IMG/VR virus record: IMGVR_UViG_3300045988_075523
Location: 1-13,163 of that record
Length of the DNA stretch: 13,163 bases
Reading direction: 5' to 3' (one strand)
DNA from: a virus
Part shown: positions 514 through 13,163 of the stretch, in pieces
Position numbering within the stretch: position 1 is the first letter of the stretch
Layout of the letters: every line of letters starts with the position of its first letter
Made by a program: the position numbers and the translations under genes
The notes under the pieces: model-generated
The model's input: only the letters and a program-made list of their open reading frames with translations
Told to the model about the DNA's origin: nothing
Databases searched by the model: none

Positions 514-1112
514 GCATAAATGAAATCACGGCCTTGCGCCGCGCCGCTTCCAAGGGTGACGCGGAAGCTTATAAAACCTTACTGGCAGAAAATGCGCGCC
601 TTGCCAAGCGCGCTAATACCCGTATGGTTGCGCTTGAAAAGGCGGGGCTTGCTTACTATGCCTACGAGCGCGCGGCGGGTTATCTTGCTTCCGAATACGG
701 CGCTAACCGCTTTACCACAAGCAAAAAGAAGCTCGCAGACCCTTACGACCTTGCACAAAACATATTGGAAGAACGGACTTTTTTGCGCGCGGAAACGTCA
801 ACAATATCGGGACAAAAGCGCGTTCGTGCGGCACGTATGCAGGCTTTTGCAAATATTGGCGTTTCTCTTCCGCAGGGCAGAGAGGACGATTTTTTAAGGT
901 TTCTCGGCTCTGACACCGTGCAAGCGGCATTAAGTGCCGTTGGGCGTAAAACTGCTATATCGGGGGAATTGGTGGAGAAACTGGCGGGCGCGTATGACAG
1001 CGCCGCGGAAAAAGCAGGCGTTAAACGCTATATAGTCAATCTATTAAATAAGTTTGCGAGTGGTGATATAGCGTATAATGAAGTAACCGACTATTTGGAA
1101 AGGAAATCATAA
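507..1112 (+). CDS. Putative terminal (priming) protein (201 aa)
   Basis: Strong GGGGGAGGG SD. Lies directly upstream of the protein-primed DNA polymerase and is translationally coupled to it (TAATG overlap at 1110-1114), as in phi29 and Cp-1. The segment KRANTRMVALEKAG loosely recalls phi29 p3 NRANMRYQFEKNAYG (from memory). The CDS is confident; the function is inferred from position. Confidence 0.5.
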   Translation: MLSINEITALRRAASKGDAEAYKTLLAENARLAKRANTRMVALEKAGLAYYAYERAAGYLASEYGANRFTTSKKKLADPYDLAQNILEERTFLRAETSTISGQKRVRAARMQAFANIGVSLPQGREDDFLRFLGSDTVQAALSAVGRKTAISGELVEKLAGAYDSAAEKAGVKRYIVNLLNKFASGDIAYNEVTDYLERKS

Positions 1113-3196
1113 TGGAACAGATTTACATAAACACGCAAGCGGGAAAGCGCTTAGAAACTGTATACAATATCAACGATTTTCCATACAGTTTTACAAACTA
1201 TGATTTTGAGATTGTCCGCAAAGCGCGGAAAGGGTCTTACTACAACATTGACGCGGCTTTCGATATTGAAGCAACTACTATTCAAGGGAAAGAAAAGCCA
1301 GTTGCATTTATGTATCAGTGGCAGTTTTGCTTACATGATAACGTGTGCTTTGGGCGCACTTGGGACGAGTTCAAAACATTTATCGAACGATTACGCAAGG
1401 GCTTTCAGTTATCTGACGGCGTGCGCTTAGTCGTTTATGTACATAACCTTGCTTATGAGTTCCAGTTTTTCCGCAACTTTTTTGAGATACAGAATATCTT
1501 TGCAACAGACCCGCGAAAAGTTATTTCCGTGCAGATAAGCGGCATAGAGTTCAGATGTTCTTACAAGCTCTCTAATATGTCTTTAGAAAAATTTTGCTCG
1601 TCCTCGAAAGGGTGTATCTATTGGAAAAAGGACGGCGGCTCGTTCAACTACGAGAAGCTGCGAACGCCCTCAACGCCGCTTACGGACATGGAAAAGGAAT
1701 ATTGCTATTGTGACGTGCGCGGATTGTGCGAGTGCATACGCGCTCTCATGGTGGAAGATACTCTTGCAACTATCCCTTTAACGTCTACTGGCTATGTTCG
1801 CAGAGAAGCACGCCACGCCGTGAAAGAAAATCCCGCTAACCATGAAAAGCTGAAGAGTTTATGTATTGATGAGAATAAATATATATTATTGCGTACCGCC
1901 CGACGCGGCGGCAATACGCACGCTTTGGCGCTATATTCCAACGAGGTGATAGAGGGCGTAAAAAGCAAAGATAAGAAGTCAAGTTATCCCGCTTCTATGC
2001 TTCTTTATGACTACCCCATGTCGCCCTTTTTGCAGATAAAGGGGCAGAAAGAGTTCTACAAAAGACTTGTCGCGGCTAATATGGCTATGTTAATAGACGT
2101 TACTTTTCGCGGCTTAGCAATTAAAAATATGCGAACAATTCCATATATCGCGCGCGCAAAATGCACCCAGTTAGAGTGCCGCGGTGCGCTGTTTGACAAT
2201 GGACGAATTATACGTGCAAGCTCCTGCCGTATGGTATGCACTGACGTGGATTTCCGTATCATAGTCGAGCAGTACACGGCGGACGATATAGAAATAAATG
2301 AGTGCTATATATCAGAATATGCCCCGTTGCCGAAAGAGTTTCGCGAGTGCGTCCGTGCTATGTTCATAGAAAAAGAGAAGCTACGGGACGGCGACCCGTA
2401 TTTATATGCAAAATTCAAAAATAAAATAAATGCTCTTTTTGGCATGATGCTGACGGATATATGCCACCCGCGTATTGAATACAATCCAAACGGACAGACA
2501 GAGGACATAGACGGGGAGAACGGTCTTTTTGAATGTGAAGTAGGAGATATAGAGGAAGAATTGCGACAGTACTATAAATCGCGCAATAGCTTTCTCGCTT
2601 ATCAGTGGGGCGTATGGGTAACAGCACACAGCCGAGCCGCATTGCAGGACGGCTTGAACGCCGTCGAGCGCGACGGCCTTTACACGGACACTGATAGCGT
2701 TAAGTATATAGGCGACCACGACGCGGACTTTGAGCGCCTTAATCATTCAATAATTAAACTTGCAGAAAAGCGCGACGTTCCCGCCTATATCGACACGCCA
2801 AAAGGACGCGTATATCTTGGAACGTGGGAGAACGACGGCGAGTATGCGCGTTTCAAAACTTGCGGTGCAAAGAAATACGCCTACGAGGACAAAAAGGGCT
2901 TGCATATCACGGTGGCAGGACTTAATAAGGAAAGCGGCGCGGAATACATCAAGCAGCAGGGCGGCATTGACGCGTTTAACATTGGCACTGTATTTCCCGA
3001 AAAGTGGGCGAAAAGAACCGTATCATATTTCAACGACGAGAAAAAGCCCTATATTTTGACCGTAACCAACGAGCGCGGGGAACGGGAAAAGATATTGACG
3101 GGAAGCAATATAGCGATTGTACCCACGACCTATACTCTTGGTATCACAGAAGAATATGCAGACTTGATAGATTACGCGCGGGCATTTCGTGACTGA
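1112..3196 (+). CDS. Protein-primed family-B DNA polymerase (694 aa)
   Basis: Exo I FDIEAT. Exo II HNLAYEFQF. Exo III YCYCDVRGL. Motif A DKKSSYPASM (DxxSLYPS-like). Motif B KNKINALFGMM (Kx3NSxYG-like). Motif C YTDTDS. KxY motif GAKKYAY. Size and ITR context fit phi29 gp2-type enzymes. Confidence 0.93.
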   Translation: MEQIYINTQAGKRLETVYNINDFPYSFTNYDFEIVRKARKGSYYNIDAAFDIEATTIQGKEKPVAFMYQWQFCLHDNVCFGRTWDEFKTFIERLRKGFQLSDGVRLVVYVHNLAYEFQFFRNFFEIQNIFATDPRKVISVQISGIEFRCSYKLSNMSLEKFCSSSKGCIYWKKDGGSFNYEKLRTPSTPLTDMEKEYCYCDVRGLCECIRALMVEDTLATIPLTSTGYVRREARHAVKENPANHEKLKSLCIDENKYILLRTARRGGNTHALALYSNEVIEGVKSKDKKSSYPASMLLYDYPMSPFLQIKGQKEFYKRLVAANMAMLIDVTFRGLAIKNMRTIPYIARAKCTQLECRGALFDNGRIIRASSCRMVCTDVDFRIIVEQYTADDIEINECYISEYAPLPKEFRECVRAMFIEKEKLRDGDPYLYAKFKNKINALFGMMLTDICHPRIEYNPNGQTEDIDGENGLFECEVGDIEEELRQYYKSRNSFLAYQWGVWVTAHSRAALQDGLNAVERDGLYTDTDSVKYIGDHDADFERLNHSIIKLAEKRDVPAYIDTPKGRVYLGTWENDGEYARFKTCGAKKYAYEDKKGLHITVAGLNKESGAEYIKQQGGIDAFNIGTVFPEKWAKRTVSYFNDEKKPYILTVTNERGEREKILTGSNIAIVPTTYTLGITEEYADLIDYARAFRD

Positions 3197-3227: not shown

Positions 3228-3256
3228 TTGACTTTTACCATTAAAAGGTGTATTCT
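3228..3256 (+). promoter_or_regulatory. Second early sigma-A-type promoter
   Basis: TTGACT (3228-3233), 17-nt spacer, TATTCT (3251-3256), with the same ggTGTAT context as the two end promoters. Confidence 0.65.
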
Positions 3257-3318
3257 ATAAGAGAAGTAAGGAACAGCACTTCATACAATGCAACTTTAAG
3301 AAAGAGAGGACTAAGACA

Positions 3319-3948
3319 ATGAGTAAAGAAATCACAACTACTAAGTTAACCTTAACGACCGAACAGCGCGAAAGCGCTATTAAGAGAATACAGAAAGGAC
3401 TTGCAGGCGTTGAGCGCGGCTATATCAATATAGCCGCTGACGTGGCAAAACTGGCAGACGCCGCCGCTTATACCGAAGTAGGTTATAAAAACATTTATGA
3501 CATGTGCGACGTTCTTTTCGGCATGAGCCGCGGCACTGTTTCCAATTTGCGCTCGATTGTAAAACGCTTCTTTGACAGCAACTATAAGATGCTTCCCGAA
3601 TATAAGGACTTCTCTGTTACCGCCTTGCTTGCTATGAAAGACCTTACAGACGAAGAAATACAGTTACTCGAGCTCACACCCGAAATGAGCAATAAAGAGT
3701 TGCGCGAGATTATCGCAAGTTTGAACGCCGAGAGCGCACCTGCTATTGAGGACAGCGAAGCAGAGAGCGGAACAGACAGCGAAGCAGAGAGCGAAGCAGA
3801 CAGCGAAGAAGCCGCACCCGACAGAGAGCCGAAGCGCTTGCAGTTATTTTGGAACTCCGAAACTGATGCCGACGGAAATAAGCTGATTAAGGCAATGCAG
3901 GAAGCAAAAGCAATGAACTATGACTTTGTAGAGGTCACGGTATTATAA
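3319..3948 (+). CDS. Putative DNA-binding protein: ParB/KorB-like HTH core with acidic low-complexity C-terminal region (209 aa)
   Basis: GAGAGGA SD 8 nt upstream and its own promoter. GMSRGTVSNLRSIVKRF ... FSVTALLAMKDL ... ELREII resembles the ParB/Spo0J HTH region (GKSRPHIANHLRLL ... LSMGHGRTLLGL ... from memory). No GERRxRA N-terminal CTPase motif. DSEAES repeats at aa 145-165. Confidence 0.45.
   Translation: MSKEITTTKLTLTTEQRESAIKRIQKGLAGVERGYINIAADVAKLADAAAYTEVGYKNIYDMCDVLFGMSRGTVSNLRSIVKRFFDSNYKMLPEYKDFSVTALLAMKDLTDEEIQLLELTPEMSNKELREIIASLNAESAPAIEDSEAESGTDSEAESEADSEEAAPDREPKRLQLFWNSETDADGNKLIKAMQEAKAMNYDFVEVTVL
3751..3813 (+). repeat. 24-bp tandem repeat (about 2.6 units) encoding DSEAESGT/DSEAESEA/DSEEAAPD
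   Basis: gacagcgaagcagagagcg is identical at 3751-3769 and 3775-3793. A partial third unit starts at 3799. Confidence 0.85.
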
Positions 3949-3953
3949 AAAAT

Positions 3954-4014
3954 AAGCGGCGCGCGGGCGTTCAATAATTGAACGCGCCGCAAGCGTCAAG
4001 CAAGCGCCGCTTGC
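3954..4014 (+). other. GC-clamped nested or alternative hairpin cluster between the early and late modules
   Basis: aagcggcgc (3954-3962) can pair either with cgcgccgc (3983-3990), enclosing palindrome copy 2, or with gcgccgctt (4004-4012). A separate 6-bp hairpin is gcaagc-gcc-gcttgc (4000-4014). No U-tract follows. Confidence 0.5.
3969..3983. promoter_or_regulatory. 15-bp palindrome copy 2 (GTTCAATAATTGAAC)
   Basis: Exact 15-mer at the apex of the GC-clamped hairpin, 81 nt upstream of the ATG at 4065. Confidence 0.8.
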
Positions 4015-4017
4015 CAG

Positions 4018-4033
4018 TGTTTCACGTGAAACA
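4018..4033. promoter_or_regulatory. parS: Perfect chromosomal-type parS (ParB/Spo0J site)
   Basis: TGTTTCACGTGAAACA is the fully palindromic form of the consensus TGTTNCACGTGAAACA. It lies 31 nt upstream of the ATG at 4065. Confidence 0.6.
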
Positions 4034-4064
4034 TTGAGTAAACAAAACAAAGAGAGGTAGTAAC

Positions 4065-4391
4065 ATGAAAAACATTAACAACGCAATCAACTTCACAAAA
4101 AAGGACGTTTTCAACGCAAACAACGGCAAGGCAATTAAAGACCTTGTAGGCGAAAAGCTAACCGTTACTGGTATTGCTTTTGGCACTGACGTGATGCAGG
4201 AAACGGGCGAAGAACGGGAAATGGTCGCAATCAAGACCGACAAGGGTATTGTCACAAGTGTGTCAGATACCGTAAAGAAATCACTTCTTGACCTTGCACC
4301 TATCATTGAAGAAGACGGTAAAGCAACCGTCACACCCGAAGTGCGCACAAGTGCAAAAGGGCGTGATTTTATCGTTCTTATCCTCGAATAA
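4065..4391 (+). CDS. phi29 p5-like single-stranded DNA-binding protein (108 aa)
   Basis: AGAGAGG SD. FNANNG...EEREMVAIKTDKGIVTSVSDTVKKSLLDL...SAKGRDFIVLIL parallels phi29 p5 FNAQTG...[30 protein letters not shown]...SSKGNVFFSLQL (recalled sequence; needs HHpred). Confidence 0.55.
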   Translation: MKNINNAINFTKKDVFNANNGKAIKDLVGEKLTVTGIAFGTDVMQETGEEREMVAIKTDKGIVTSVSDTVKKSLLDLAPIIEEDGKATVTPEVRTSAKGRDFIVLILE

Positions 4392-5530: not shown

Positions 5531-5553
5531 ATGTTTCACGTGAAACATTTTTT
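5531..5553 (+). terminator. Possible intrinsic terminator formed by the parS palindrome plus a T6 tract
   Basis: ATGTTTC-ACGT-GAAACAT stem-loop followed by tttttt (5548-5553). The stem is AT-rich, so termination is probably partial. Confidence 0.4.
5532..5547. promoter_or_regulatory. parS: Perfect chromosomal-type parS (ParB/Spo0J site), second copy
   Basis: TGTTTCACGTGAAACA, extended to the 18-bp palindrome ATGTTTCACGTGAAACAT (5531-5548). It lies 8 nt from palindrome copy 3. Confidence 0.6.
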
Positions 5554-5555
5554 GG

Positions 5556-5570
5556 GTTCAATAATTGAAC
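5556..5570. promoter_or_regulatory. 15-bp palindrome copy 3 (GTTCAATAATTGAAC)
   Basis: Exact 15-mer, 18 nt upstream of the ATG at 5589 and immediately 5' of the SD. Confidence 0.8.
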
Positions 5571-6997: not shown

Positions 6998-7013
6998 TGC
7001 TTTCCCAAAGCGC

Positions 7014-7021
7014 TTGAAACA
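7014..7021. promoter_or_regulatory. parS half-site-like TTGAAACA
   Basis: Matches 7 of 8 bases of the right parS half GTGAAACA. It lies 6 nt upstream of palindrome copy 4, the same order as at 5532/5556. Weak on its own. Confidence 0.25.
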
Positions 7022-7027
7022 TTAACA

Positions 7028-7042
7028 GTTCAATAATTGAAC
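7028..7042. promoter_or_regulatory. 15-bp palindrome copy 4 (GTTCAATAATTGAAC)
   Basis: Exact 15-mer, 15 nt upstream of the ATG at 7058. Confidence 0.8.
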
Positions 7043-8449: not shown

Positions 8450-9404
8450 AAAAGACAAAAGCCGCTCTTGGTGGCAGGCAATCAAAGAAGCGTGCGGCGT
8501 AAGGCCTACTGATGTGAACGGGCAGGACACCTTGCGGACACAGTTCTATTTTTCAGAGCTGTTGGAGCTTGTGAAAGGGCGCTTCAAGATTGACTGCCCC
8601 GACGAATGGGACAAAGATTTCATTCTTAACCAATTAATTTTAGCAGGCTTCTTTGGTGTGACTGATACACCGCTTGGCGTCGTTCCCTGCATATGCGCGC
8701 CGAAAGGTCTTAATATTTTTCAGCGCCCAAATAGTTTTACAATCAGCGGTGCGGAACTTGTAAGCGCTATCGCGGGAAGTGACTTAGAGAGAACGCTCGG
8801 CGTTGACGGGGCACTTGTATATCTACGGAGTAGCGGATATTCTTTTCAAACACTCGTGCCGCTCTTGCAAGTATACGCGGAGAAGTTGGCAACGTGTGAC
8901 GCGTCCATAGATGTTTCCTTAATAAACAGCCGTGTTGCTTATGTATTCGAGGTGGCAGACGGGAAGCAGGCAGAGGACGCCAAAAAGTTATATGGGAAGA
9001 TTTCAAGCGGTGAGCCCGCGGTATTTATGCGCTCTAACACTAATCCTGCCGTTGCACTCTCCACAGATAGTGGCTTCAACTTCCACATAAACAATGTGAA
9101 AAATGCCTTTATTGCGGGAGAAGTGCAGGACGTAAAGCGGACGATTTACAACGAATTTTTGACACGCATAGGACTTAATAACGCCAACACAGACAAGAGA
9201 GAACGATTGAATAGCGACGAAGTGAACGCGAATAATGACGAGATAAAAGCGGCGGTAAGCTATTGGAAGAAAAATCTTGAGAAATGCTGTAAGGAAGTAA
9301 ATAGGCTTTTTCCCGATATTACTTTTAATATCACCATTGAGGAGAGTGAAAGCGGTTCAATTATTGAACGCGGAGAGGAGAGGAGAGAAAGTGAAGTTAA
9401 TTGA
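8442..9404 (+). CDS. Portal / upper collar connector, phi29 gp10-like (320 aa)
   Basis: ATG at 8442 overlaps the upstream stop. IYNEFLTRIGLNNANTDKRERLNSDEVNANNDEI parallels gp10 [34 protein letters not shown] (recalled). Acidic C-terminal tail. Confidence 0.85.
   Translation: MSKKDKSRSWWQAIKEACGVRPTDVNGQDTLRTQFYFSELLELVKGRFKIDCPDEWDKDFILNQLILAGFFGVTDTPLGVVPCICAPKGLNIFQRPNSFTISGAELVSAIAGSDLERTLGVDGALVYLRSSGYSFQTLVPLLQVYAEKLATCDASIDVSLINSRVAYVFEVADGKQAEDAKKLYGKISSGEPAVFMRSNTNPAVALSTDSGFNFHINNVKNAFIAGEVQDVKRTIYNEFLTRIGLNNANTDKRERLNSDEVNANNDEIKAAVSYWKKNLEKCCKEVNRLFPDITFNITIEESESGSIIERGEERRESEVN
9355..9369. promoter_or_regulatory. 15-bp palindrome copy 5 (GTTCAATTATTGAAC), inside the portal 3' end
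   Basis: Exact 15-mer encoding SIIE in the portal tail, 21 nt upstream of the GTG at 9391. Confidence 0.8.
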
Positions 9405-9984: not shown

Positions 9985-10815
9985 ATGGCATACGGGGCTT
10001 TTGAGTTTCCAAACGCGTCTTTTTATGACAGCGACTTACGGGAACTATTGGCAATGTATAAAAAGTTAGTATCCGAATATGACAGCATTTTATCAACAGT
10101 CGAAGCATTAAACAAAAAAGTTAATGATTTATACAACTATGTTGATGCGGAGATTGCGGAAGCGGTAAAAGCCGCACTCGCGGAAGTCAATGCTAAGATT
10201 GTAGCTATCAATGAAAAGATAGCAACGATTAACGGTATTCTTACCGCACATGAAGAAAAGATAAACAACTTAAAGCAGTACACCGACACGCGCTTTACCG
10301 AGGAAAGAAACATCACAGATAGCACGATTGAGCAGACACGGAAAGAGATTGAAGCGGATATACGAAAGTTAACCGTTGAATTTTCCGCGGACTTGTTGAA
10401 GTTGTGGGAGTATGTGCAGGACTTATCTTTTACTCTCCCGCCTATTTATAATCCCGTAACGGGGAGATATGAAGCGATACCAAAAGCGGTAGATGACATA
10501 TGGAACGCCGTGCGCGTTCATGCTTTGACGGTTGCGCGGTATAGCGCGGACGCGTTGACGGTAGACGAATATAAGGCGCTCATGCTTACGGCAACAGAGT
10601 ACGCAGTAAAGGGACGTTCAATTATTGAACTGCCCGAAGCGCTCAACCGTTTGGCAGGTAACTGGACAACGGTAAATAATGCAATAGCGAGCGCGGGCCA
10701 AGTGGGTGCAGTAAACAGTTTGAGCGCCGCGGAGTATGCCGCCTTGAACTTAACCGCAGACGCGTACAGCGCGGAAAAGTTATCAGTTTCACAATATGAT
10801 TTTAACGGCGTATAA
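9985..10815 (+). CDS. Putative tail fibre / appendage protein with coiled coil and LTxxEY decapeptide repeats (276 aa)
   Basis: GAGAGGAG SD. Heptad-like helical region at aa 25-135. Six 10-aa units L(T/S)xx(E/A/Q)Yxxxx at aa 181-210 and 246-275. Sits in the phi29 gp12 position. Confidence 0.45.
   Translation: MAYGAFEFPNASFYDSDLRELLAMYKKLVSEYDSILSTVEALNKKVNDLYNYVDAEIAEAVKAALAEVNAKIVAINEKIATINGILTAHEEKINNLKQYTDTRFTEERNITDSTIEQTRKEIEADIRKLTVEFSADLLKLWEYVQDLSFTLPPIYNPVTGRYEAIPKAVDDIWNAVRVHALTVARYSADALTVDEYKALMLTATEYAVKGRSIIELPEALNRLAGNWTTVNNAIASAGQVGAVNSLSAAEYAALNLTADAYSAEKLSVSQYDFNGV
10616..10630. promoter_or_regulatory. 15-bp palindrome copy 6 (GTTCAATTATTGAAC), internal to a CDS
   Basis: Exact 15-mer encoding SIIE in the same frame as copy 5. 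No start codon or SD lies downstream. Confidence 0.75.
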
Positions 10816-12641: not shown

Positions 12642-12676
12642 AAAGACCTACACGGTAAAGTGTAGGTCTTTCTTTT
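12642..12676. terminator. Bidirectional rho-independent terminator
   Basis: 12-bp stem aaagacctacac / gtgtaggtcttt with loop ggtaaa. cTTTT lies on the + side and an A-run upstream (T-run on the - strand). It sits between the convergent lysin gene and the right-end gene. Confidence 0.85.
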
Positions 12677-12685
12677 AGGTTATAA

Positions 12686-12931
12686 TTAAATTCTAAACAT
12701 ATCAACGTGGCTATTGCAGAAAGTTGCTGTTTCTCCGTTCTCTAATGTTATAATTAAATACTCATTGTATTCGTCCCTGCTATTCTCGTCTGTATCAAGT
12801 CCTATCTCTGTTGCTATGTCTCCCGTTACTACCTCATAACCTCTTATTCTGTTATACTTAACCTCTGCTACTTCCTCGCTACTTACTTCATACTTAACTC
12901 CGTTGTAAATCTTAACTTTAACATTTATCAT
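12686..12931 (-). CDS. Hypothetical acidic right-end early protein (81 aa)
   Basis: The only convincing minus-strand gene. AAAGGAAAGG SD, its own promoter and a terminator. 16 Asp/Glu versus 8 Lys/Arg. Confidence 0.7.
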   Translation of the reverse strand: MINVKVKIYNGVKYEVSSEEVAEVKYNRIRGYEVVTGDIATEIGLDTDENSRDEYNEYLIITLENGETATFCNSHVDMFRI

Positions 12932-13025: not shown

Positions 13026-13163
13026 TCGTTCAATAATTGAACGCAATCCCGTGTCCGTATACGGCGTACAATCTGTCCGTGACGGACGCACAATCAGCCA
13101 GAGTGTCCGTGTACGGCGGACATTTGGGGAAAAGTGTCCGTGTACGGCGGACGGGAGTATCGC
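13026..13163. repeat. Right inverted terminal repeat (138 bp)
   Basis: Exact reverse complement of 1-138. Confidence 0.97.
13028..13042. promoter_or_regulatory. 15-bp palindrome copy 8 (ITR mirror of copy 1)
   Basis: Exact 15-mer at the inner edge of the right ITR. Confidence 0.8.

Follow-up and report, generated by a model that had tools for sequence, protein, structure and literature searches.

A widespread, remotely ParB-like helix-turn-helix protein family and the dispersed palindromes it may read in phi29-like phages and inovirus-like prophages

Gene X and the palindromic sites of the window

The subject of this analysis is gene X of the virus record IMGVR_UViG_3300045988_075523 (IMG/VR) and a short palindrome scattered over the same genome. 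The window, that is, the whole stretch of 13,163 bp analyzed here, is a full linear genome of a phi29-like gut phage; its perfect 138-bp terminal inverted repeats (ITRs; 1-138 and 13026-13163), together with a gene for a B-family DNA polymerase (1112-3196), indicate that it is complete and replicated by protein priming. X follows the polymerase gene and precedes that of a phi29-type single-stranded DNA-binding protein (SSB; 4065-4391, 108 amino acids; Pfam Phi29_Phage_SSB, E = 5e-5), and this slot, DNA polymerase-X-SSB-packaging ATPase, is kept in relatives down to 41-47% X identity. An earlier note, made from the sequence alone, had described X as an early protein with a truncated ParB-like helix-turn-helix (HTH) core and an acidic repeat tail, which could bind either parS, the target of ParB, or a repeated 15-mer palindrome. 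The open reading frame (ORF) and the position of its end next to one copy each of the palindrome and parS were found as described there. With promoter and ribosome-binding site (RBS), the locus is as follows:

3228-3256, plus strand: sigma-70-type promoter TTGACT-17-TATTCT, score 9/12; five relatives share its -35 and -10 blocks unchanged but differ in spacer and downstream sequence
3304-3309, plus strand: RBS GAGAGG, read from the sequence, 9 nt 5′ of the ATG
3319-3948, plus strand: coding sequence of protein X, 209 amino acids; 53 homologues at E ≤ 1e-30 on contigs of ~13 kb
3953-4014, plus strand: GC-rich composite hairpin directly 3′ of the X stop codon, with palindrome copy 2 at its apex

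According to the note, no other gene has a strong promoter of its own. The promoter of X does exist and is conserved, but a better sigma-70 match (TGGACA-17-TATAAT, 11/12) lies at 150-178, 5′ of the first gene, and the genome contains 21 promoter-like matches against 20.3 expected by chance. That X is an early protein was an inference of the note rather than an observation, and was not confirmed. Some close relatives carry an additional ORF of 59 amino acids between the conserved promoter and X (L002, 3395-3574; L007, 3428-3607), which makes X the second gene of the transcription unit there. Within the X coding sequence, over its conserved RGYINIAA motif, lies a perfect palindrome with 10-bp arms, GCGGCTATATCAATATAGCCGC (3416-3437); it is retained in L002, its core GGCTATATCAATATAGCC is also found in L007 and L009, and it is broken in L006 and in more distant clades.

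The 15-mer palindrome GTTCAATWATTGAAC occurs in eight exact copies in the window, against 0 expected, and exact parS in two copies, against 0.12 expected. The sites, for which no strand is assigned, are as follows:

122-136: palindrome GTTCAATTATTGAAC, copy 1, within the left ITR, 14 nt 5′ of the -35 of the left-end promoter
3969-3983: copy 2, 21 nt past the X stop codon
4018-4033: exact parS TGTTTCACGTGAAACA, copy 1, 70 nt past the X stop codon; probably not the target of X
5532-5547: exact parS, copy 2, 8 nt 5′ of palindrome copy 3
5556-5570: copy 3, between packaging ATPase and scaffold genes, 8 nt past parS and directly 5′ of an RBS
7028-7042: copy 4, past the capsid gene and before the gene that follows it, directly 5′ of an RBS
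9355-9369: copy 5, where the upper and lower collar genes meet, directly 5′ of an RBS
10616-10630: copy 6, within the gene at 9985-10815, a position kept in L002, L006, L007 and L008
13002-13016: copy 7, at the right end of the genome, immediately outside the ITR
13028-13042: copy 8, within the right ITR, the mirror of copy 1

The positions of the 15-mer sites are conserved in the four relatives L002, L006, L007 and L008. A search of the literature with the palindrome sequences retrieved nothing relevant.

Sites of this kind need not be read by a phage protein. They could be recognized by a host factor such as Spo0A, or act as RNA hairpins, X then being a DNA-binding accessory of protein-primed replication, either non-specific or with other targets, comparable to p6 of phi29, which is likewise encoded beside the SSB gene and has an acidic C-terminus. 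We consider this explanation rather unlikely, but several observations fit it: X always adjoins the SSB gene in the replication module, several palindrome copies lie directly 5′ of RBSs, and copy 2 is part of a very stable hairpin (-47.2 kcal/mol for the RNA fold of 3940-4040, z = -6.2), equivalents of which, as GC-clamped palindromes 3′ of the X stop codon, occur in relatives (CGCGCGTTCAACGTTGAACGCGCG in L001, a similar one in L010). The 15-mers themselves form only weak RNA hairpins (-4 to -10 kcal/mol), whereas all seven of their seven paired positions are complementary, including the pair that could not form in an RNA triloop. Full complementarity and weak hairpins together favor recognition as double-stranded DNA. 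A role of the 15-mers as RNA hairpins or terminators was rejected for their weak stems, the lack of a U-tract and a palindromy that runs into the would-be loop, as was their identification as Spo0A boxes, since they match TTCGACA at only 5/7 positions.

Architecture of protein X

In the predicted structures, X consists of two structured domains joined by a disordered acidic segment; the elements, with the corresponding positions in the window, are:

3358-3729, plus strand: predicted DNA-binding domain at the N-terminus (residues 14-137), all-helical, its fold resembling that of the ParB DNA-binding domain or DUF3102
3493-3570, plus strand: HTH (residues 59-84), with helices 59-67 and 71-84 in the full-length model
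3730-3822, plus strand: disordered acidic linker (residues 138-168), with a predicted local distance difference test (pLDDT) value <50
3751-3808, plus strand: tandem repeat GACAGCGAAGCA encoding (D/E)SEA (Tandem Repeats Finder: period 24 × 2.4, 94% matches; period 12 × 4.8)
3826-3945, plus strand: small β-α-β C-terminal domain (residues 170-209; strand 173-178, helix 187-198, strand 203-208), pLDDT ~90

The N-terminal domain was modeled with AlphaFold2 from 41 diverse sequences (pLDDT 96.5; predicted TM-score, pTM, 0.85). When the models were compared with the PDB using Foldseek, the top match for both was chain C of the Helicobacter pylori Spo0J-parS complex (4umk_C; probability 0.89-0.91; for the domain model, TM-score over the query, TMq, 0.54, E = 0.7). 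Of the 16 top PDB matches, nine were ParB/Spo0J chains (TMq 0.40-0.54, E 0.7-5), and VirB was also among the matches. Against the viral models of BFVD, significant matches were obtained to uncharacterized phage proteins (E down to 9e-6, TMq 0.7), and proteins annotated as “chromosome partitioning” were also matched. Models annotated as DUF3102, a family of uncharacterized phage and plasmid proteins (PF11300) in which, as in X, a long N-terminal helix is followed by the HTH, appeared at ranks 9, 19 and 22 (probability 0.97-1.0, TMq 0.51-0.59) and at rank 39 (0.30, TMq 0.41), with E-values of 0.012-1.6. No functional data on DUF3102 were found in a full-text literature search.

The likeness to ParB is also discernible at the level of sequence profiles. 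With a profile of the Spo0J DNA-binding domain built here (the Spo0J sequence was checked against 6sdk, 407 bits), hhalign aligned positions 32-130 of the X family to positions 18-120 of the domain over 97 collinear columns (score 25.0, P = 0.001). This score was equaled in none of 300 column shuffles and in 6 of 500 shuffles of 8-column blocks, and none of those six aligned ≥90 columns. The same comparison with a single Spo0J sequence was discarded as uninformative (probability 0.4%). The alignment spans the HTH, the GHxRxLL helix and the SVRxLE helix, the last of which is resembled by the X family consensus MSVR(D/E)IKK. Thus, the three peptides that the earlier note had likened to ParB (residues 68-84, GMSRGTVSNLRSIVKRF; 98-109, FSVTALLAMKDL; 123-132, MSNKELREII) are present as quoted and collinear with the three Spo0J elements. 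No block of the family is more strongly conserved than the recognition helix SRGTVSNLRSIVKRF, which is aligned with GKSRPHIANHLRLL of Spo0J.

The DNA-binding domains of chromosomal ParB/Spo0J (PDB 4umk, 1vz0, 6sdk; HTH_ParB, PF17762) are therefore the nearest solved relatives of X, as the note had supposed, but the similarity is remote (TM ~0.5). Unlike ParB, X also lacks the N-terminal ParB/Srx domain: ParBc (PF02195) gave no match at E ≤ 10, the GERRxRA motif is absent, and only 13 residues precede the first helix, which bears out the note's claim of a missing CTPase domain. We take the N-terminal domain of X to be a remote ParB-DNA-binding-domain-like (DUF3102-like) HTH domain without a CTPase domain, outside the curated ParB families.

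Searches of Pfam, NCBIfam and PDB sequences with X alone returned chance-level matches only, a profile of 103 family members retrieved nothing relevant from the PDB sequences, and the phi29 early protein families of Pfam and PHROG were not matched by X. The one significant match was PHROG 15077 (X residues 19-150 against profile positions 13-144 of 546; E = 2.2e-12, 48 bits), which carries no annotated function and shares only the N-terminal domain with X. An exhaustive profile search (E ≤ 1e-3) put the family at 1,455 representatives at 50% identity; it is unannotated, and a cluster look-up returned no names. Pattern matches for X in IMG/VR (207) were not confirmed by tblastn.

The C-terminal domain and the acidic linker are present in all aligned family members, those from prophages included, and the β-α-β fold of the domain makes it a candidate dimerization module. 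The acidic stretch DSEAESGT/DSEAESEA/DSEEAAPD (residues 145-168) is encoded by the 24-bp repeat that had been noted as slippage-prone (its end, previously set at 3813, is placed at 3808 by Tandem Repeats Finder). Among 41 close homologues, the variable segment of the linker is most often 2, 6, 10, 14 or 18 amino acids long, that is, it contains 0-4 additional (D/E)SEA units of 12 nt. As its length changes in steps of 12 nt, a length polymorphism of the slippage type is confirmed.

The linker may act as a DNA mimic or an autoinhibitory element. A different explanation is that X is no DNA-binding protein but a terminal protein, or a factor recruiting proteins or mimicking DNA through its acidic tail. 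Residues 138-168 are indeed acidic and disordered, and phages of the phi29 type are known to encode acidic DNA mimics (p56). This explanation we regard as very improbable: it is the HTH recognition helix that is best conserved, and 10 of the 103 family members weakly match HTH_28 in Pfam, whereas conservation is lowest in the acidic segment, the length of which varies freely. For the role of terminal protein, X was rejected, because its conserved core is an HTH and a better candidate exists in an ORF of 201 amino acids without a family match (507-1112), which overlaps the start codon of the polymerase (ATGA) and is kept by all relatives in position and length (201-204 amino acids).

Palindromes and recognition helices across related elements

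Some 30 elements encoding a member of the X family were examined, comprising phi29-like podophages and loci on contigs from bacterial genomes or metagenomes (L014-L034); among the latter, an inovirus-like prophage was confirmed for L014-L018 and L030. Most of these elements carry a perfect palindrome of their own in multiple copies. Recurrent palindromes, listed by recognition helix, were:

Helix FGMSRGTVSNLRSIV, window clade (window, L002, L006-L008): GTTCAATWATTGAAC, 6-8 copies
Helix FGMARGTVSNLRNI, L001 and L004: GTTCAACGTTGAAC
Helix FGMSRGTVSNLNTIV, L010: GTTCAACGGTTGAAC
Helix HGISRGTTSDAIN, L011 and L013: GTTCGAC-NN-GTCGAAC, 6-7 copies
Helix HYISRGTTSDAIN, L012: GTTCGAC-N-GTCGAAC, 5 copies
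Helix FGIARGTTSNFIN, L014: GTTCAAACGTTTGAAC, 4 copies, all intergenic
Helix GIARGT..., L016 and L017 (Kineothrix alysoides): GTTCGAACGTTCGAAC, 3-4 copies
Helix (E/Q/R)K(S/T)(S/T)xY, L018-L023, L025, L027 and L030: TTTTCCGAACGTTCGGAAAA or close variants, 2-8 copies
Helix (S/D)RT(V/A)(V/A)S(R/K), L032-L034: TGTGCGATATCGCACA, 2-4 copies

Helices of the form (S/A)RGT, found in four podophage clades and in the prophages L014-L017, go with GTTC(A/G)A...T(C/T)GAAC, the centers and spacings of which are clade-specific; those of the form (E/Q/R)K(S/T)(S/T)xY go with the general form TTTTCC(G/A)(A/G/N)ACGT..GGAAAA. Not a single locus combines a helix of one class with a palindrome of another. The palindrome class tracks the class of the recognition helix and not the backbone of the element: prophages sharing a backbone of the rolling-circle replication protein Rep (45-52% identity) have different palindromes, each following the class of X. 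Moreover, X is the only protein common to the podophage and six prophage regions. With no mismatched pair, with X as the sole shared protein and with palindromes that differ on a common Rep backbone in step with X, the palindromes are likely read by X. A host factor of fixed specificity explains neither clade-specific half-sites and spacings, nor palindromes that follow X on a common backbone, nor the presence of X as the sole shared gene; in addition, the 15-mer of the window is not a 0A box.

In most lineages (L011-L014, L016-L020, L023, L030), one to three palindrome copies lie just 5′ of X or its operon, which is the usual arrangement for an autoregulated operator. In L014, each of the four copies lies no more than ~70 nt 5′ of a plus-strand gene.

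The integrated, inovirus-like elements with members of the X family also encode Zot, a Rep of the REP_ORF2-G2P type and an IS30-type integrase. Bacterial hosts of the family include Lachnospiraceae (Kineothrix alysoides, Dorea), Ruminococcus and, in one case, a metagenome-assembled genome of Bacteroidales; judging from these prophage hosts, the podophage likely infects Clostridia as well.

The second proposed target, parS, behaved differently. The exact, Firmicutes-type site was found in podophages only, in 0-3 copies per genome and usually between genes (L001, L002, L007, L008, L010, L011, L013 and the window). Its position varies among the relatives, and its sequence remains unchanged where the recognition helix changes. 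That X binds parS and thereby mimics or competes with host ParB/Spo0J at phage parS and at the origin-proximal parS of the host, as a ParB deprived of its CTPase domain, nevertheless has several points in its favor. The best solved structural match is a Spo0J-parS complex, X keeps the S-R...V.N motif found in the recognition helix of ParB, an exact parS follows X not only in the window but, directly past the stop codon, also in L010, and 7 of 16 parS sites, in two clades, lie 21.5-24.5 bp (center to center) 5′ of an X palindrome. On the other hand, exact parS is missing from L004 (one mismatch), L006 and L012, all of which encode X, and from the scanned prophage loci L014 and L015, and it is identical in clades with helices as different as SRGTVSNLR and SRGTTSDAIN, whereas the clade-specific palindromes do change. 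The slot of parS may also hold a different palindrome, namely, AAGCGCTAAAGCGCTT beside the 15-mer in L006 (4017-4032 and 5543-5558) and the close variant AAGCGCTAAGGCGCTT, flanked by ATGTT...AACAT, beside X in L007 (~4270-4300) and L008. A simpler precedent exists in phi29, the five parS sites of which are used by host Spo0J (PMC2731898). We therefore hold binding of parS by X to be distinctly improbable; by analogy with phi29, the parS sites of the window are probably read by host ParB. Between the two targets proposed in the note, the 15-mer is thus favored over parS.

The recurrent spacing, a fixed gap of 8 nt in two podophage clades, suggests that parS and the X palindrome form a composite module, the second palindrome position of which seems exchangeable. 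In the window, what appears to be a hybrid or decayed site, AAGCGCTTGAAACA, is found 5′ of palindrome copy 4 (7006-7021). X and host ParB might even act jointly on the composite site, X serving as a roadblock or clamp-lock for ParB-CTP (cytidine triphosphate) clamps loaded at phage parS, like KorA, which locks KorB on plasmid RK2; the idea is a long shot. If true, the phage could silence its late genes in this way, or hitch its genome to the host machinery for segregation or spore entrapment.

Interpretation and significance

On balance, and with moderate confidence, we take X to be a dimeric HTH reader of the phage's own eight-copy palindrome GTTCAATWATTGAAC and a KorB-like, genome-wide regulator or organizer, parS being rather a site for host ParB. 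In this mechanism, the C-terminal domains would pair two X chains, so that two HTHs could read the two half-sites of GTTCAATWATTGAAC. The sites would be those in the terminal repeats near the left-end promoter, after the X gene and at the starts of late-gene blocks. Bound there, X would act on the whole genome as an operator-binding regulator or organizer, in the way that KorB acts from its OB sites on RK2, but with no sliding that depends on CTP; the effect could be repression, activation or a change of DNA architecture.

Several findings weigh against this interpretation. With regard to the fold, the E-values of the Foldseek matches in the PDB (0.35-5) are not significant, and the hhalign probability was only 8-21%. 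The Pfam families HTH_ParB (PF17762) and KorB (PF08535) were not matched by X and are not listed among the families of its 103 relatives, and DUF3102, to which X itself gave no match, was touched weakly by only 2 of the 103 (best E = 0.0013). With regard to the covariation, the classes of helix and palindrome are also clades, so that it rests on few independent events; 5 of the 19 bacterial loci (L024, L026, L028, L029, L031) showed no repeated palindrome, and L015 has one copy. The palindromes of L011-L013 contain, on one strand, the Spo0A box TGTCGAA (402-417 in L011, 308-322 in L012, 206-223 in L013, among others), which makes a host reader conceivable for this clade; as in phi29, these palindromes may double as host Spo0A sites. 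With regard to the sites, no 15-mer lies 5′ of the promoter of X in this phage, copy 6 is intragenic, and copies 3-5 are too near to start codons for promoters to fit downstream of them. A simple operator model thus fails to account for all sites; classical repression and a role in DNA architecture or as a roadblock are equally plausible.

Among known systems, X may be compared with KorB of the IncP plasmid RK2, a global repressor of the ParB-CTPase family. There are 12 OB sites for KorB on RK2. In KorB, an HTH domain of the ParB type precedes a linker and a dimerization domain at the C-terminus; X has the same order of parts, with an HTH domain remotely like that of ParB and a C-terminal domain that may serve dimerization. 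The core of OB, TTTAGCGGCTAAA, is short and perfectly palindromic around a single central base (PMC11790492). In both cases, the site is scattered in many copies over the element's own small replicon, at promoters and away from them, although for X the link between protein and site comes from the covariation; autoregulation may be a further shared feature. Unlike KorB, X has an acidic repeat linker, gives no match to Pfam KorB and lacks the N-terminal CTPase domain, and hence cannot form a CTP-dependent sliding clamp; it also occurs in different elements, that is, lytic phi29-like phages and inovirus-like prophages of Firmicutes. The difference from ParB extends to the target, which for ParB is parS (TGTTNCACGTGAAACA) and for X, by our reading, is not. 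The early phi29 proteins p4, a transcription switch, and p6, a histone-like activator of the origin, bind the DNA of their phage at promoters and close to the ends of the genome. With X they share a small size, a podophage replicated by protein priming as their source, and genes beside that of SSB in the replication module (map in PMC2731898), but they have no relationship to X in sequence or fold and are not of this HTH type, and X would read a discrete, multi-copy palindrome.

The remainder of the genome is in keeping with its phi29-like character. The window further encodes a gp16-type packaging ATPase, a phi29-type capsid protein, an upper collar connector and a GH25 lysin, and each ITR contains the 20-nt repeat GTCCGCCGTACACGGACACT three times (at 12, 43 and 95). 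At gathering thresholds, no Rfam family was found in the window, and no packaging RNA (pRNA) of the phi29 type was detected. Between the lysin gene and the only minus-strand ORF of the window (12686-12931, near the right end; 81 amino acids, without a family match) lies a hairpin with a 12-bp stem that resembles a bidirectional terminator (12642-12671). None of 50,697 GenBank phage records is a near relative (megablast of the whole genome, tblastn of X), whereas collinear metagenomic contigs of ~13 kb are many.

The observation made in the earlier note was, in essence, correct, and its interpretation was partly right, namely, in the ParB-like fold, the missing CTPase and the polymorphic repeat. 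To our knowledge, small phi29-like phages of gut Firmicutes and the inoviruses of Gram-positive bacteria have hardly been studied, their regulators included. The X family would represent a new, unannotated form of the known HTH regulators with dispersed palindromic operators. A large family without annotation is hereby tied, element by element, to a cognate DNA motif, which provides a testable recognition code (three helix classes corresponding to three palindrome classes, with finer variants inside) and nominates X as master regulator of these elements. The use of a ParB-like DNA-binding domain without the CTPase domain is of interest for the evolution of ParB/KorB-type proteins between roles in partition and in the control of transcription, and the acidic linker with its polymorphic length constitutes a natural series on the effect of tether length in a dimeric DNA reader. 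Should X merely be an ordinary operator-binding repressor, the main gain would be the annotation of its family across many gut phages.

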